Below are positions 46,595 to 55,476 of a stretch of 64,000 bases of DNA, one piece after another. Numbering within the stretch: the stretch's first letter is position 1; each line of letters starts with the position of its first letter. Made by a program: the position numbers and the translations under genes. The notes below the pieces were generated by a model that searched no databases, was not told the DNA's origin, and worked only from the letters and a program-made list of their open reading frames with translations. Source of the stretch: a virus; UHGV virus genome UHGV-1430452; one strand, written 5' to 3'.

Positions 46595-46666
46595 TGTTAC
46601 CTCCTAGAAACAAAAAGAGAAGAGTCCCATAATTGAGACCCGTCTCTTTTTCGAATACTTTAAATG

Positions 46667-46972
46667 TTATTTCTCGGCTGCTTCCTCGTCGATTTCTTCC
46701 TCGATAACGGATTCATCTTCAGGTTCATCAACCTCTTCAACCTCGACCCATTTCAGTCTTTTCTTGGCTTTCTTCTTTTTAGGCTGCTCGTCTTTCTTTT
46801 TGGATTTGATTTTCTTGTAAGCTGCTGCTCCTAATGCAACTGCTCCAGCAATCAATCCTACTGTCAGACCGATAGCCTTTCCAGATCCACCTTCTTCTAC
46901 TGAATAGTCTTCCGGCTCCAGGTCAATAACCTCAACCTCGTTATCCATTACTTCGTCTTTGATTTCGCTCAT
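46667..46972 (-). CDS. single-pass membrane protein, 101 aa
   Basis: Start set at MSEIKDE (AAGGAGG RBS, downstream of promoter motif 47011-47036). TM AIGLTVGLIAGAVALGAAAY followed by a KKKK tract. Confidence 0.6.
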   Translation of the reverse strand: MSEIKDEVMDNEVEVIDLEPEDYSVEEGGSGKAIGLTVGLIAGAVALGAAAYKKIKSKKKDEQPKKKKAKKRLKWVEVEEVDEPEDESVIEEEIDEEAAEK

Positions 46973-47041
46973 AGCAAGATCCTCCTTTAAAATAATTTTA
47001 AGTATTTTCTTCATAAAGCACTGTGTATTTTTCGCGTATGA

Positions 47042-47869
47042 TTAATAGTAGCTATCGAAACCATATTCCGGAGGCATCAGATGATCAATAACAATACACG
47101 GTTCATTATCTTCCGTAATTTGAGCACTATATCTCACATCGATTTTGCCTTTATCGATTCTCCAACCGATGCTATTACCAACTTCGGTATGCTTAAGACC
47201 AATTTCGTCATAGAAATCATTCAGAGAAATATACATCTCGTTACCGTTGATCATTCTCTCATTAAGAGTAAGAACAGCATTTTTAATCTTGTCGATATCC
47301 GATCTGAAATATCTGTCGGAATGACTGTCATAACACAACGTGTTACCTTTACCTGTCATGATAATCTGAGTGTCTGCAACCGGATGTTCTTCAACTTGCT
47401 TCTTAGCGACTTTATCTCTGATGTTATTTTCCTTCTTCTCTCCGATAGTCTCTACCACTTTCTCTCTGTAGTCAGACAGTGCTGTTGTAGATAACTGATA
47501 TGCTGTTGCCAATGCTGCGTTACGTCTTACATGTACGGAATTAGCACCGATAAGACAAGCGACTGACGCAATGCCAGTGATAGCTGCTGGAATATAAGGT
47601 TTCCAAGCTGCTTTTACTGTTTCGACAGGTGTGAGATTTAAAGCGTTTCTTTCGTCTTCTTCTGTGAAAATACCGCCTTCATGAGCTTCTTTCTCTTTAA
47701 ACTTCTTCTCTTCCTCGATTAACTCCATAGCTTTTGGTGTTGCTTTTACTGCAAGCACAACAGTAGATATCATACCTGCGATACCAATGCCAGTAAGAAT
47801 TTCCGGACTGCGTTTTTTCATTACATATTTTGCAGTGTTTAAAAATTTTGTTACATTTGGTTTGTTCAT
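47042..47869 (-). CDS. paralog-family membrane protein, 275 aa
   Basis: MKKRSPEILTGIGIAGMISTVVLAVKATPKAMELIEEEK closely matches 49330..50106 and 44029..44967. Confidence 0.7.
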   Translation of the reverse strand: MNKPNVTKFLNTAKYVMKKRSPEILTGIGIAGMISTVVLAVKATPKAMELIEEEKKFKEKEAHEGGIFTEEDERNALNLTPVETVKAAWKPYIPAAITGIASVACLIGANSVHVRRNAALATAYQLSTTALSDYREKVVETIGEKKENNIRDKVAKKQVEEHPVADTQIIMTGKGNTLCYDSHSDRYFRSDIDKIKNAVLTLNERMINGNEMYISLNDFYDEIGLKHTEVGNSIGWRIDKGKIDVRYSAQITEDNEPCIVIDHLMPPEYGFDSYY

Positions 47870-47958
47870 TTTTTATCTCCTTTCATGAACAGTTAAATTG
47901 TTTTTACCAAAAATCCCACTCGGGAAAATTTTGATCTTGAAAAAATAGAAATCGAAAA

Positions 47959-48030
47959 GAAACAGTGTAGGACTCGAACCCACAACCTACAGATATAAGT
48001 CTGTTGCTCTACCAATTGAGCTAACTGTTT
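47959..48030 (-). tRNA. tRNA with atypical 6-nt anticodon loop (CUUAUA; anticodon probably UAU, Ile)
   Basis: AAACAGT-TA-GCTC-AATTGGTA-GAGC-A-ACAGA-CTTATA-TCTGT-AGGTT-GTGGG-TTCGAGT-CCTAC-ACTGTTT-C. All four stems are good. The loop length is confirmed by the overlapping ORF-track translation (QQTYICR). Confidence 0.7.
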
Positions 48031-48033
48031 CTT

Positions 48034-48062
48034 CTCATAATAGCGCTTGTAAATTTCGCGAA
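48034..48062 (-). promoter_or_regulatory. phage promoter-like motif directly upstream of the tRNA
   Basis: Minus strand TTCGCGAAATTTACAAGCGCTATTATGAG, then 3 nt (AAG), then the tRNA 5' end. Confidence 0.6.
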
Positions 48063-48078
48063 TATAGATCTTCAGAAA

Positions 48079-48104
48079 CAAAAAAGAAGAACCCCGAAGG
48101 ATTC
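48079..48104 (-). terminator. intrinsic terminator (UUCG tetraloop)
   Basis: Minus strand GAATCC-TTCG-GGGTTC followed by TTCTTTTTT. Confidence 0.75.
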
Positions 48105-48106
48105 TC

Positions 48107-48277
48107 CTAGACTTTCTTCTGAAGCTCAGAAACTGCTTTCTTCAACTCTTCAAACTCCTTTTCTTTTTTCTGATCTGATAATGCACCTGCTATAGCCATA
48201 ATACCTGTTACTACAACACCTGCATATTTTCCGACAGACTTCAGAAGCGGATTATTGATAATACCTTTGAATTTCAT
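48107..48277 (-). CDS. small membrane protein, 56 aa
   Basis: Hand-translated MKFKGIINNPLLKSVGKYAGVVVTGIMAIAGALSDQKKEKEFEELKKAVSELQKKV. It has its own promoter motif (48301-48327) and terminator. Confidence 0.55.
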   Translation of the reverse strand: MKFKGIINNPLLKSVGKYAGVVVTGIMAIAGALSDQKKEKEFEELKKAVSELQKKV

Positions 48278-48364
48278 TTTTCTCGTCTCCTTTCTTCATT
48301 CCATTAAAGGAAATGTTTTTGTCGCGATACCGGTTTCGCTATATCAAAATATCATCGTTTATCG

Positions 48365-53813: not shown

Positions 53814-53907
53814 TTTAGAATTTTAATATTGTTTCCTGTCACCTATGTACGGAATATCTATTCTAGATTAGAGTTTGTTTTAATCTAGGTTAAAGAAAAA
53901 AGAGAGC

Positions 53908-54144
53908 CTAAGCCCTCTTATCTGTCATAAAACTTGGTAACTGAAGTTCTGGTTTATAAGTCATTAACTCTGCTTCATATAGCCTCATGATAATAGCTAT
54001 CTCATCTTCATGAATACTTTTTATCAACTTAAAGACTTTATCATAATCAACATCTGATTTATTCTTCATTTGACAAATATAATCCACGAGTCTGGTATAC
54101 TTATCATCCGCAGTTCCTATCATTGCCGCAAATTTAACTTCCAT
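53908..54144 (-). CDS. hypothetical protein, 78 aa
   Basis: Monocistronic cassette (promoter motif 54179-54206, terminator at its stop). Confidence 0.6.
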   Translation of the reverse strand: MEVKFAAMIGTADDKYTRLVDYICQMKNKSDVDYDKVFKLIKSIHEDEIAIIMRLYEAELMTYKPELQLPSFMTDKRA

Positions 54145-54225
54145 AATTTATCCTCCTTAAATTTAAAGTTTTATGTTTCTATAAAGTAGTATGTATTTTT
54201 GGCGAAAAAGAAAAGAAGAGACCGA

Positions 54226-54426
54226 TTAGGCCTCCTCTTTAAATAACTCAGGGTATTTCTCCATCAGTTCTTTTCTGTCTCGTTCAATGTCTTTTTCTAT
54301 ATGCTCGATTTCTGCTTCCAATTTACCTGTGCTTTTACCTAAACGGTAACCCAGATAAGATCCTACAGCATAAACCAATCCGGCATATAAACCAAAACCT
54401 AAACCAGCTTTTAAATTAGCTTTCAT
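54226..54426 (-). CDS. small membrane protein, 66 aa
   Basis: TM LKAGLGFGLYAGLVYAVGSYLGY plus a charged helix. Promoter motif 54451-54478. Confidence 0.6.
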   Translation of the reverse strand: MKANLKAGLGFGLYAGLVYAVGSYLGYRLGKSTGKLEAEIEHIEKDIERDRKELMEKYPELFKEEA

Positions 54427-54468
54427 GATAGATCACTCCTATAATTTATTCTCATAATAGGCGTTGTT

Positions 54469-54657
54469 TTAGTCGCGATCATCAAACGGTACTTCTATGT
54501 TTTCAATCTCGTCAGAAATAATCTCCCCGTCACCGATAAGTAGTTCTCTTTTGTTTATTTGATTAACGCTAGTTCGATATATACCCTCAGCTACTGCTAG
54601 TCCGATAAATGTACTTACTCCCCAAAGAATTCCTTTGATTAATTTATTAGTATCCAT
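54469..54657 (-). CDS. small membrane protein, 62 aa
   Basis: Start set at MDTNKLIKGILWGVSTFIGLAVAEGIY (GAGGAAAA RBS). Confidence 0.5.
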   Translation of the reverse strand: MDTNKLIKGILWGVSTFIGLAVAEGIYRTSVNQINKRELLIGDGEIISDEIENIEVPFDDRD

Positions 54658-54737
54658 TTTGAATTTTCCTCTCATGATATATTCTCTATTGGAAATCAAA
54701 AGGAAGAGTATCTGCATAGATACCCGCCTTTTTGTTT

Positions 54738-54953
54738 TTAATTATTGCTTGTGGTCCAACCCATGTTGTTCTGTGTGAATGAGTTGTTAATGCCGTTGAT
54801 AGTTCTTACTCTATCCTCGTACAATGAATTGTCGCTAATGATGCTAACTCCGAATTTCCATTTGAAGTCTGGAATTTCGTTAGCTGCTTTCATAGCTTCA
54901 TCCCATTTCTCAAGGAAGACTTCTATCGCATATCCTCTCTCTACACTATCCAT
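54738..54953 (-). CDS. hypothetical protein, 71 aa
   Basis: Monocistronic cassette behind promoter motif 54981-55008. Confidence 0.6.
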   Translation of the reverse strand: MDSVERGYAIEVFLEKWDEAMKAANEIPDFKWKFGVSIISDNSLYEDRVRTINGINNSFTQNNMGWTTSNN

Positions 54954-54980
54954 GTCGTTACCCTCCTTTATAATAATTTT

Positions 54981-55008
54981 CTATAAAGGAGCGTGTAATT
55001 TTCGCGAA
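54981..55008 (-). promoter_or_regulatory. phage promoter-like motif copy (first of the cassette array)
   Basis: Plus strand ctataaaggagcgtgtaattttcgcgaa, 28 nt upstream of the ATG at 54953. Confidence 0.6.
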
Positions 55009-55056
55009 TATCTAATCCCGTGCATTAATCAACTTCAGATTCTCACTTCGTTCTAA

Positions 55057-55476
55057 TCAATCCCTAGCATTCGATAGCAGCCAAAAGAACCTTCTGTACC
55101 TGTCGTAATACATGTCTCTACCGCACGGAATATCTAACTTTGACCGCAGGTAAGTATACGATAAACCCTCTGTAACCGCTTTTAAAATGTAATCGTACAA
55201 ATAACGGTCTGCATCCAAAGCTATCCTCTCGATTAGATCGATTTTCTCTTTATAATAAGCTCTCAAGATTGCTCTCTTACCTGTTGGATCACCAGGCATA
55301 TTGCTCGTTGGGATTTTCTCGATCATGGATAACGGTACAGAATGATCGTTAAAAGCAGCATAAGCACTCTTCCATATCGGATACTGTAAACAAAAATGTT
55401 TTAGTTCGTAATATCGATGTTTGCTAATCCAGTATTTGTTGTTCTCAGACAGCTCTGGACGTATTCTTGTTGCCAT
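55057..55476 (-). CDS. RinA/ArpU-like transcriptional activator (sigma region-4-like)
   Basis: 139 aa. YYELKHFCLQYPIWKS...KIDLIERIALDADRYLYDYILKAVTEGLSYTYLRSKLDIPCGRDMYYDRYRRFFWLL resembles phage late-activator families. Judged by pattern only. Confidence 0.4.
   Translation of the reverse strand: MATRIRPELSENNKYWISKHRYYELKHFCLQYPIWKSAYAAFNDHSVPLSMIEKIPTSNMPGDPTGKRAILRAYYKEKIDLIERIALDADRYLYDYILKAVTEGLSYTYLRSKLDIPCGRDMYYDRYRRFFWLLSNARD

Follow-up and report, generated by a model that had tools for sequence, protein, structure and literature searches.

Small genes divided by terminator-promoter joints form a probable early/middle accessory array in an Oengus-like temperate phage

The window analysed here is the whole of a 64,000-nucleotide stretch of the UHGV virus genome UHGV-1430452, which belongs to an Oengus-like temperate siphophage of gut Clostridia, and the subject of this report is a dense array of small genes, all on the minus strand, which a preliminary description of the sequence had placed at 46600..55060. 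The explanation that best accommodates the observations, and which we hold to be probably correct, is that this is a hyperplastic early/middle accessory region whose small genes are separated by joints in which a terminator is followed directly by a promoter. Each joint would end the previous transcript at a hairpin and U-tract and start the next at a promoter of about 30 bp, which is most probably the promoter recognised by the two-barrel RNA polymerase (RNAP) that the phage itself encodes, and not one for host sigma-70; thirteen units would then give one small protein each, three would give small structured RNAs and one a leader terminator, and a second tier of genes would receive read-through transcription only, with lower or later expression. 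About half of the thirteen small proteins carry a membrane-type segment, and the weakest step of the explanation is that such proteins would act early in the lytic cycle, many of them at the membrane, in host takeover, exclusion or counter-defence.

The promoter motif was described by a 36-position weight matrix (PWM) built from repeats read on the minus strand and applied with a cut-off of 12 bits. Its consensus, TTCGCGA-N6-ACA-N4-CCTATTATGAGA, covers about 30 bp in three conserved blocks which lie about one helical turn apart. The minus strand of the window gave 35 matches of at least 12 bits, from 55012 down to 4545, and at the same cut-off there were none on the plus strand and none in 10 shuffles. 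Seventeen of the 35 fall within 47007..55012 (two of them weak, at 54210 with 12.7 bits and at 47042 with 16.2 bits), confirming the number given in the preliminary description, and an independent repeat search of the window recovered the same motif family, as 11 copies of a 41-nt repeat. Terminator-like sites, consisting of a hairpin and T-tract, numbered 20 against 5.9 +/- 3.1 expected from shuffles (about 3.4-fold), 18 of them on the minus strand, and generic sigma-70 sites were not enriched (35 found against 37.9 expected).

It had been proposed that each promoter drives one short product closed by a terminator, and this is true of 13 of the 17, which are strict cassettes of a promoter, a strong Shine-Dalgarno (SD) sequence, one open reading frame (ORF) of 35-127 amino acids (aa) and a hairpin with a free energy (dG) of -10.5 to -21.5 kcal/mol. 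The remaining four promoters deviate: P6 (52604), P12 (50679) and P16 (48066) lead into non-coding RNAs and P13 (50249) into a leader which ends in a terminator. At 13 joints the T-tract of the hairpin is directly continued by the TTCGCGA box of the promoter that follows, and the median intergenic gap in the array region is 85 nt, compared to 19 nt elsewhere in the window. The units are given below with the dG of the terminator in kcal/mol; transmembrane (TM) calls here and throughout rest on Kyte-Doolittle hydropathy (KD) in 19-residue windows with a threshold of 1.6, and the ratios of nonsynonymous to synonymous differences (pN/pS) come from comparison with the nearest relative, locus L001, at 80-93% nucleotide identity.

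Unit 1, 54700..55012 (-): promoter 54977..55012 (30.3 bits), SD AAAGGAGG, ORF 54738..54953 (71 aa, soluble), terminator 54700..54730 (dG -10.9)
Unit 2, 54212..54483 (-): promoter 54448..54483 (36.0 bits), ORF 54226..54426 (66 aa, glycine-rich hydrophobic N-terminus, KD 1.32, pN/pS 0.05), terminator 54212..54240 (dG -16.0)
Unit 3, 53900..54210 (-): weak promoter 54175..54210 (12.7 bits), ORF 53908..54144 (78 aa, soluble), terminator 53900..53919 (dG -10.5)
Unit 4, 53069..53554 (-): promoter 53519..53554 (34.0 bits), ORF 53113..53496 (127 aa, coiled-coil and C-terminal hydrophobic segment with KD 1.57, phrog_15866, homologues in 74 of 80 loci), terminator 53069..53103 (dG -21.5)
Unit 5, 52607..53070 (-): promoter 53035..53070 (36.2 bits), ORF 52644..53012 (122 aa, one TM-like segment, KD 1.75), terminator 52607..52631 (dG -13.6)
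Unit 6, 52425..52604 (-): promoter 52569..52604 (39.8 bits), degenerate tRNA-shaped RNA, T-tract
Unit 7, 51786..52006 (-): promoter 51971..52006 (29.5 bits), ORF 51810..51959 (49 aa, TM-like, KD 1.74, 100% aa identity in L001), terminator 51786..51813 (dG -14.8)
Unit 8, 51574..51764 (-): promoter 51729..51764 (34.7 bits), ORF 51599..51706 (35 aa, TM, KD 2.21, pN/pS 0.07, weak matches to phrog_29296 and phrog_8761), terminator 51574..51604 (dG -14.4)
Unit 9, 51260..51571 (-): promoter 51536..51571 (40.8 bits), ORF 51285..51512 (75 aa, soluble, phrog_18243, homologues in 44 loci), terminator 51260..51291 (dG -12.8)
Unit 10, 51039..51258 (-): promoter 51223..51258 (43.8 bits), ORF 51051..51191 (46 aa, TM-like, KD 1.69, pN/pS 0.29), terminator 51039..51065 (dG -11.1)
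Unit 11, 50681..51032 (-): promoter 50997..51032 (45.3 bits), ORF 50703..50966 (87 aa, soluble, pN/pS 0.21), terminator 50681..50717 (dG -14.9)
Unit 12, 50500..50679 (-): promoter 50644..50679 (44.0 bits), RNA of about 130 nt, T-tract
Unit 13, 50130..50249 (-): promoter 50214..50249 (38.4 bits), leader (fold z-score -3.4) with hairpin 50151..50183 and T-tract (dG -11.8), upstream of a DUF6353 gene
Unit 14, 48872..49145 (-): promoter 49110..49145 (40.0 bits), ORF 48879..49082 (67 aa, TM, KD 1.86), terminator 48872..48893 (dG -12.7); 80% nucleotide identity to MT835485
Unit 15, 48085..48332 (-): promoter 48297..48332 (35.5 bits), ORF 48107..48277 (56 aa, TM-like, KD 1.64), terminator 48085..48108 (dG -12.3)
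Unit 16, 47935..48066 (-): promoter 48031..48066, tRNA-shaped RNA 47959..48030, T-tract
Unit 17, 46613..47042 (-): weak promoter 47007..47042 (16.2 bits), ORF 46667..46972 (101 aa, acidic/basic with a central TM segment, KD 2.06), terminator 46613..46650 (dG -18.6)

The twelve short hydrophobic ORFs singled out in the preliminary description are all present where it had placed them, and their description needs amending in two respects. Three have no promoter of their own (54469..54657, 49134..49316 and 53538..53813, the last being likely a 69-aa ORF from the GTG at 53747), and eight of the twelve reach a KD of 1.6, the other four being borderline at 1.32-1.57. By their pattern of substitution the small ORFs of the array are real genes under purifying selection: for those shared with L001 the pooled pN/pS is 0.14 (pS 0.223, pN 0.032), the ratio is low even for the ORFs of 35, 46 and 49 aa, and 13 of 16 shared ORFs keep their exact length, with two differing by 1 aa and 48365..48820 by 15 aa. 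TM-like segments are found in 11 of 21 array genes compared to 20 of the 96 remaining minus-strand genes (Fisher p=0.0055), an enrichment which is modest but real.

Eight genes of the array have no promoter of their own and lie behind the RNA or leader units or behind three of the cassette terminators, and two of them encode DUF6353 proteins. They are as follows.

54469..54657 (-): 62-aa ORF behind the unit 1 terminator; KD 1.51 (borderline), pN/pS 0.09 against L001
53538..53747 (-): 69-aa ORF with GTG start and a strong N-terminal TM segment, KD 2.64
51991..52350 (-): 119-aa gene, phrog_17256, behind the unit 6 T-tract; pN/pS 0.06
50249..50470 (-): acidic 73-aa ORF behind the unit 12 T-tract; pN/pS 0.13
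49330..50097 (-): DUF6353 paralog of 255 aa with an N-terminal TM segment and no direct promoter; Pfam PF19880, E 1e-58
49134..49316 (-): 60-aa TM peptide, second cistron, 13 nt past the DUF6353 gene; KD 2.81
48365..48820 (-): 151-aa soluble ORF behind the unit 14 terminator; weak match to phrog_8582
47042..47869 (-): DUF6353 paralog of 275 aa behind the tRNA-like unit; PF19880, E 4e-89, phrog_2152

Because of the position of its SD sequence and because phrog_15309 aligns only from residue 23 of the long ORF 53538..53813, the GTG at 53747 is taken as the likely start of that gene. Upstream of this gene, at 53857..53888 (-), there is a decayed motif copy, CTAGATTAAAACAAACTCTAATCTAGAATAGA (repeat family D3), which may be the relic of a lost promoter. 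The 73-aa protein of 50249..50470 is strongly acidic (D+E 16 against K+R 6) and has no family match.

This division into promoter-driven genes and promoterless genes behind a terminator is conserved across the family. The family was surveyed in 80 IMG/VR viral loci and 80 prophage loci (Lachnospiraceae, Oscillospiraceae and others) that carry the marker gene for a 139-aa early protein introduced below. Families of the first tier have their own direct promoter (64 of 69 for the family of the unit 4 ORF, g53496, and 44 of 44 for that of the unit 9 ORF, g51512). The 119-aa family (g52350), with homologues in 72 of 80 loci, lies behind a terminator in 64 of 72 cases and is directly promoter-driven in none; homologues of the 69-aa ORF occur in 61 of 80 loci, 46 of 59 of them behind a terminator; the g46594 and g46376 families lie behind a terminator in 53 of 53 and 66 of 66 cases; and none of 275 DUF6353 matches is directly promoter-driven. 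With this conserved promoterless tier behind terminators, and with the units that encode only RNA, the array is not the uniformly monocistronic one of the preliminary description.

Two further promoterless genes lie outside 46600..55060.

46391..46594 (-): conserved 67-aa ORF of the g46594 family, phrog_15567, just past the end of the array
44029..44967 (-): third DUF6353 paralog, 312 aa; Pfam E 5e-87

Three large membrane paralogs had been described as interleaved with the array; two are inside it and the third is this last gene. The three share 32-38% identity and score 198.9, 298.8 and 292.1 bits against a PF19880 cut-off of 25, their sequences had no match in the PDB, and a structure model built from the three paralogs was unusable, with a predicted local distance difference test (pLDDT) value of 52.

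In the 80 viral loci the PWM found 697 promoters, all co-oriented with the marker gene, of which 555 have an SD-preceded ORF within 70 nt (median length 74 aa). These 555 promoter-proximal ORFs fall into 135 families, of which 131 are small, 54 are TM-like and 82 occur in a single locus. A hairpin and T-tract lies within 75 nt of the stop codon in 325 of 346 distinct units, compared to 6 of 346 after shuffling. The prophage loci, from hosts of 34-56% GC content, gave 449 motif matches downstream of the marker gene, 50 upstream of it and none on the opposite strand.

The preliminary description had seen in the array a modular accessory region in which single units can come and go independently of one another, and had proposed that cassette turnover be sought among related phages; such turnover was found both between the window and L001 and across the 80 loci, since L001 lacks or replaces whole cassettes and 82 of the 135 families are known from one locus. 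L001 lacks the unit 1 cassette, for which the 80 loci gave no homologue, and the place of the unit 3 ORF is taken in L001 by an unrelated 54-aa ORF between identical boundaries. L001 has an extra cassette exactly at the unit 5 terminator/promoter joint, where the terminator in the window is a hybrid of the two in L001, and an extra 59-aa ORF by 49134..49316, inserted between repeated ribosome binding site (RBS) sequences. The ORF 54469..54657 is preceded in L001 by a promoter, an RNA of about 130 nt and a T-tract instead, and in the P13 leader the sequence of the hairpin has been replaced with the hairpin and T-tract retained between near-identical flanks. One further site was found between the repressor gene and the early promoter.

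55996..56035 (-): cassette footprint, a TCGCGA half-motif fused to a terminator hairpin

Because L001 holds a complete promoter-ORF-terminator cassette at this position, the site looks like the footprint of a deletion. In this breakpoint analysis of one close pair, the ends of insertions and deletions thus comprise three junctions in terminator/promoter joints, one at a repeated RBS and one footprint, and by this comparison it is at the repeated joints and the repeated RBS that relatives gain, lose and exchange cassettes. A megablast search for close relatives in GenBank gave a sole match of 173 nt.

Two tRNA-type genes had also been noted in the array, and both correspond to real structured RNAs, neither of which decodes. 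The RNA at 47959..48030 (-) scores 62 bits with the Rfam tRNA model (RF00005), for which the threshold is 29; its 'anticodon' loop, CUUAUA, has 6 nt, and ARAGORN reports the RNA as 'tRNA-???'. The RNA at 52446..52515 (-) has a canonical acceptor and T-arm and no anticodon arm; it was found only by a family model (R1, 37.3 bits, E 1e-8), falling below the Rfam tRNA threshold, being missed by ARAGORN at default settings and scoring poorly at relaxed ones. ARAGORN places syntenic copies of the tRNA-like element at the predicted promoter start in most relatives, with 'anticodons' ranging from tta (stop) to 2- and 4-base oddities, and the cloverleaf covaries, 94.5% of alignment cells being paired and 18 of 21 pairs altered on both sides, controls with slid partners giving 34-49%. 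In most prophages a model derived from this alignment places the element some 3 kb downstream from the marker gene, and the model also recognises it in FP_oengus (a cultured Faecalibacterium phage), twice in the Lactococcus phage P092 and at 52446..52515 in the window. A canonical loop of 7 nt, with U33 and R37, is present in only 4 of 56 model matches. Three of these are ordinary tRNAs off the syntenic site, two being the tRNA-Met genes of the window and of FP_oengus and one an opposite-strand tRNA in L128; the remaining one, in L107, is syntenic. Elsewhere the syntenic loops are non-canonical, of 2-24 nt and mostly 5-6, and some resemble GAAA or UUCG tetraloops. Because of these anticodon loops, which lack U33, vary from 2 to 24 nt and are sometimes tetraloop-like, the predicted tRNA-shaped RNAs cannot decode.

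Two other interpretations of the element were rejected. An ochre-suppressor tRNA accompanying TAA recoding, suggested by the 'tRNA-Stop(tta)' calls of ARAGORN in many relatives, is at odds with the loops just described and with TAA being the usual stop codon of the cassettes, and a tRNA remnant of a phage attachment site (attP) does not agree with an element that is complete, fused to a promoter and kept in phages where no integrase was seen. Copies with their own phage promoter and a T-tract end were observed at L081 2935..3006 and at L163 20012..20080 and 20400..20468; the tRNA-shaped RNA is absent from the features listed in the FP_oengus and P092 records, as is a promoter-preceded tRNA-Met of FP_oengus (L082 2557..2634). 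The element spans phages from lytic ones of Lactococcus to temperate ones of Faecalibacterium and Lachnospiraceae. That the array carries in it a dedicated RNA effector, anticodon-less and made as a primary promoter-to-terminator transcript, can be put forward only tentatively; it could possibly draw off, as a decoy or sponge, host factors by which the body or 3' end of a tRNA is recognised, immune toxins modifying acceptor ends and tRNA-binding enzymes being examples, or it could possibly be a cofactor of the phage polymerase.

The RNA of unit 12 (about 130 nt) pairs its first bases with its last bases just ahead of the T-tract. It is 96-97% identical to its counterpart in L001, with one compensatory change from A-U to G-C and one pair-disrupting change in another hairpin, and is also present in L077. 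No Rfam family was matched by the P6, P12 or P13 RNAs, even at a permissive threshold. Several unrelated promoter-proximal RNAs of about 100-130 nt likewise have first transcribed bases (GAGAGAA...) that pair with bases ahead of the T-tract, at 50500..50647 (-) in the window and at about 14908..15050 in L001, 1430..1540 in L048 and 13290..13400 in L012.

The motif is probably read by an enzyme which the phage itself encodes.

305..3475 (-): single-chain two-barrel RNAP-like protein of 1056 aa, phrog_4291 'RNA-dependent RNA polymerase' (1140 bits, E=0), with GADFDGDT at residue 580 (the DxDGD metal-binding motif) and a C-terminal Sigma70_r4-like helix-turn-helix (HTH)

Homologues of this protein (36-42% identity) are present in 250 phage records with hosts in the Actinobacteria and Firmicutes, and a 36-nt motif query matched 203 of 50,697 phage records at 828 places, the sampled matches being all on the plus strand and mostly unannotated. 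Co-occurrence was compared by genus totals: the polymerase is found in 95 records for Arthrobacter, 55 for Gordonia, 54 for Streptomyces, 4 for Rhodococcus and 13 for Lactococcus, and the motif in 95, 55, 37, 4 and 6 respectively. FP_oengus (48% GC) has the motif from the stop codon of gp03 to just before the RNAP gene or operon and none in its late genes; in P092 TTACATACCCTATAATGAGA occurs ten times, accompanied by small ORFs and T-tract terminators and by two tRNA-like RNAs fused to promoters; and the Arthrobacter phage Mudcat (L164, NC_031224), whose GC content is 45% compared to 63% in its host (PMC5513430), has the full motif including the CGCG box, for example TCGCGAAAATTACACGCCCTATAATAGAAG. 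Since phages with hosts from two phyla keep the motif, and since it accompanies the phage polymerase, we read it as the probable promoter of that polymerase. Promoters which overlap the start site are known for non-canonical phage RNAPs (phiKZ T(-3)ATG(+1) and AR9 AACA-N6-TA/G; PMC7598289).

Among the records listed, the RNAP gene is usually at the far end of the genome (Psst2 being an exception), after an endonuclease or exonuclease gene where neighbours are annotated, and many homologues are annotated only as 'HTH DNA-binding protein'. In the window the operon of the RNAP gene is headed by tandem variant copies of the motif at 4545..4580 and 4676..4711 (-), with CACGAAA instead of CGCGAAA, behind which lies a genuine tRNA-Met (CAU) at 4438..4511 (-).

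The geometry of the motif also bears on its reader. Sigma-70 holoenzymes initiate 6-9 nt downstream of the -10 hexamer. In the motif there is no TTGACA at 16-18 bp, the conserved upstream box being 13 bp from the hexamer, and the A(-11)/T(-7) frame is missing from variants like CTTTATGG and TTTAATGG. Among 327 distinct units there are 85 whose SD core starts no more than 5 nt past the TATTAT hexamer (at P7 of the window TATTAT is followed by AGAAAGGAGG and the SD begins 3 nt past the hexamer, putting the 5' end at the edge of the motif), position 1 of the acceptor stem in the tRNA-like RNAs lies 2-6 nt past it, with covarying acceptor pairs, and the closing helices of the small RNAs mostly begin at the first base past it, a measure for which the shuffled control is weak. 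As all three kinds of element start right past the hexamer, the RNA 5' ends are placed at about TAT/G (the slash marking the 5' end), 0-4 nt past TATTAT, and transcription would start at or just past the G of TATTATG, a geometry closer to phiKZ T(-3)ATG(+1) than to a -10 box (PMC7598289). With no -35 element at 16-18 bp and predicted 5' ends too near the hexamer, the motif is not of the sigma-70 type.

The most serious alternative nevertheless concerns the reading enzyme, and requires the early region of the phage to be introduced.

55873..55902 (-): canonical sigma-A-type early promoter, TTGACA-16/18-GATATT/TATTCT, ahead of a cro-like HTH gene, a 57-aa ORF and the 139-aa gene
55057..55476 (-): 139-aa early protein, phrog_11237, the last gene before the first motif copy, 45 nt away

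The temperate character of the phage is marked by a large serine recombinase and by an XRE repressor at 56053..56649, divergent from the early promoter. The 139-aa family, used as the marker above, comprises 7912 protein clusters at 90% identity, none of them named, and occurs in 332 IMG/VR loci and in prophages of Hungatella, Enterocloster, [Ruminococcus] torques, Roseburia, Blautia, Oscillospiraceae and others; the homologue in the cultured relative, FP_oengus, has 40% identity. A helical structure model of the protein (pLDDT 76) gave weak fold matches to sigma region 4, to the Q21 antiterminator and to a phage 'transcriptional activator', and no homologue was detected in Mudcat or P092, both of which bear the motif.

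Host RNAP could thus read the motif after being redirected by the 139-aa protein as a sigma-like factor or activator, leaving the phage RNAP to transcribe the late genes in the manner of YonO, which transcribes late genes only (PMC5467207). The 139-aa gene closes an early operon which is driven by sigma-A and controlled by the repressor, with the first motif copy only 45 nt further on; its fold resemblances, although weak, are to proteins of the appropriate kind; the motif includes a TATTAT/TATAAT element; and as the motif ends just before or at the RNAP gene, with no copies at the late genes, reading by host RNAP would solve the problem of how the system is bootstrapped. This reading is nonetheless unlikely, as the motif is borne by Mudcat and P092 with no detectable 139-aa homologue and is kept across hosts of two phyla, the predicted 5' ends lie 0-4 nt past the hexamer and not 6-9 nt as for sigma-70, and the CTTTATGG and TTTAATGG variants do not fit the sigma-70 frame. 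The 139-aa protein had been the motif reader in our first model, which was demoted because the geometry is wrong for sigma-70 and the motif follows the phage polymerase. A promoter in two parts, with the 139-aa protein on the CGCG box and the RNAP on the core, was rejected as well, since Mudcat has the CGCG box without a 139-aa homologue.

A second alternative is that the cassettes are morons, that is, genes for lysogenic conversion or superinfection exclusion (Sie) expressed from the resident prophage and insulated by their own promoter and terminator. A promoter, a small ORF and a terminator make up the classic moron layout, many of the products look membrane-anchored, as known Sie proteins are, and the phage is temperate. 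We consider this improbable. The promoter is not a sigma-A one, being a phage-specific motif that also stands ahead of the RNAP operon and of the replication genes; there is no excess of sigma-70-like sites; and the same cassette design is present in P092 and Mudcat, where no integrase or repressor was found in the regions examined. Because the cassettes share this promoter with replication genes, functions expressed from the prophage are disfavoured. Finally, a single long transcript in which the motif is an RNA-processing site and the hairpins stabilise the 3' ends of upstream fragments after cleavage would account for the coincidence of predicted RNA 5' ends with the 3' edge of the motif and is very hard to credit, as the three blocks spaced about one helical turn apart over about 30 bp, with no RNA structure, fit recognition of duplex DNA, T-tracts follow the hairpins in 94% of units, no upstream promoter could feed a transcript of 50 kb through more than 20 such sites, and the orientation bias is absolute.

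Several points weigh against our preferred explanation, an accessory array punctuated by joints and read by the phage RNAP. The starts, the termination, the read-through and the identity of the reading enzyme are all deduced from sequence and comparison, and it is assumed that an RNAP of this kind stops at hairpin/U-tract terminators. The TATTAT/TATAAT element of the motif resembles a -10 box, and the co-occurrence of motif and RNAP could reflect the common descent of whole genomes that share genes. In every genome examined the RNAP gene is itself behind motif copies (4580 and 4711 in the window, 27684 in Oengus and about 43540 in the Mudcat locus), and a search upstream of the RNAP gene for a sigma-A promoter that could bootstrap its operon gave nothing above chance, so that the first RNAP molecules would have to come from the virion or from bootstrapping by host RNAP, a part for which the temperate clade has a candidate in its 139-aa protein. 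The TM calls depend on a hydropathy scale alone, by which four of the twelve listed peptides are borderline, and no peptide matched a family of known function in Pfam, PHROGs or NCBIfam, the matches obtained being to families of unknown function or at chance level.

The position of the array is informative as to function. FP_oengus shares the gene order of the window, which in its annotated genome runs integrase, a small gene, gp03, small hypothetical genes, three DUF6353 genes, DNA polymerase, 'RNA-dependent RNA polymerase' and the structural and lysis genes, and in the window the array is placed between the early operon and the replication genes. The holin-like peptides which the preliminary description had offered among other possibilities are unlikely, because the array has this position and the lysis genes of the relative FP_oengus (holin gp84 and endolysin gp82) are at the far end of the late region. 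Among the neighbouring genes, 37592..41818 (-) encodes a 1408-aa fusion of a P4/D5-type primase-helicase (DUF5906) and a family-B DNA polymerase segment, the counterparts of which in FP_oengus, P092 and Mudcat are annotated simply as 'DNA polymerase', and the order small-gene array, polymerase fusion, exonuclease and RNA polymerase is common to the polymerase-bearing phages examined.

A limited literature search, by which absence is not proven, found no description of the motif, of the two-tier layout or of an anticodon-less tRNA mimic, and there are several known systems with which parts of the array can be compared. The closest in layout are the composite terminator/promoter motifs termed PeSL (promoter early stem-loop) in hyperplastic regions of T4-like myoviruses (PMC2839356, PMC4122927). 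As here, a stem-loop terminator is directly followed by a promoter, copies of this pair separate small ORFan genes within a plastic region flanked by conserved blocks, and insertions and deletions between close relatives end in the motif, so that whole cassettes of regulatory sequence and ORF are shuffled. The differences are that the array is carried by a temperate siphophage whose hosts are Clostridia and whose relatives occur in Actinobacteria and Lactococcus, that its promoter is a phage-specific motif of about 30 bp with another start-site geometry and not of the host sigma-70 early type, and that some of its cassettes encode RNAs and a conserved promoterless tier lies behind the terminators.

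A comparison can also be made with SPO1, in whose takeover module at least one small membrane protein, gp56, blocks host cell division. This host-takeover module is a dense cluster in which most of the early genes are small and are served by strong promoters and RBS of their own (PMC6873191, citing Stewart et al. 1998), and the array resembles it in the density of such genes; the module uses host sigma-A early promoters, is organised in short operons and lies in the terminal redundancy of a lytic myovirus, whereas the array has the phage-specific motif, and host shut-off was shown there by experiment, whereas the array is known from its sequence.

With YonO of SPbeta the phage RNAP shares a single-chain structure, the DFDGD catalytic motif and a gene just upstream of the late genes (PMC5467207, PMC7598289), and the mapped YonO start precedes an unannotated non-coding RNA (PMC5467207). 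The late promoter of the phiKZ non-virion RNAP, T(-3)ATG(+1), overlaps the start site as TAT/G seems to do here (PMC7598289). YonO differs in having one late promoter, in contrast to about 35 motif copies ahead of early/middle genes and none ahead of late genes, and the enzyme of the window differs in its fused C-terminal HTH; the relationship is at the level of the family only, SPbeta not being among the tblastn categories listed. The sequence and specificity of the YonO promoter were left undefined (PMC5467207). Lastly, the tRNA-shaped RNAs resemble phage tRNAs and suppressor tRNAs in their cloverleaf with conserved D- and T-arms, in scores above the Rfam threshold and, for some, in the 'tRNA-Stop(tta)' call, and differ from them in loops of 2-24 nt without U33 and in being primary promoter-to-terminator transcripts.

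Few temperate phages of human gut Clostridia are commoner than the Oengus-like ones, FP_oengus having been reported in up to 40% of virome samples (PMC5883640), and the present analysis gives a sequence-level map of the punctuation of their early transcription. It describes a promoter of about 30 bp that travels across bacterial phyla with an uncharacterised family of single-chain two-barrel phage RNAPs, and the defined consensus, together with the culturable members Mudcat, P092 and FP_oengus, makes the question of promoter specificity in YonO-type enzymes testable, with a compact orthogonal polymerase/promoter pair as a possible yield. The anticodon-less tRNA mimic is a new RNA to be explained, and the small early proteins of the 80 loci, with 135 families of which about 40% are membrane-type, provide a catalogue for screens of host takeover and counter-defence.

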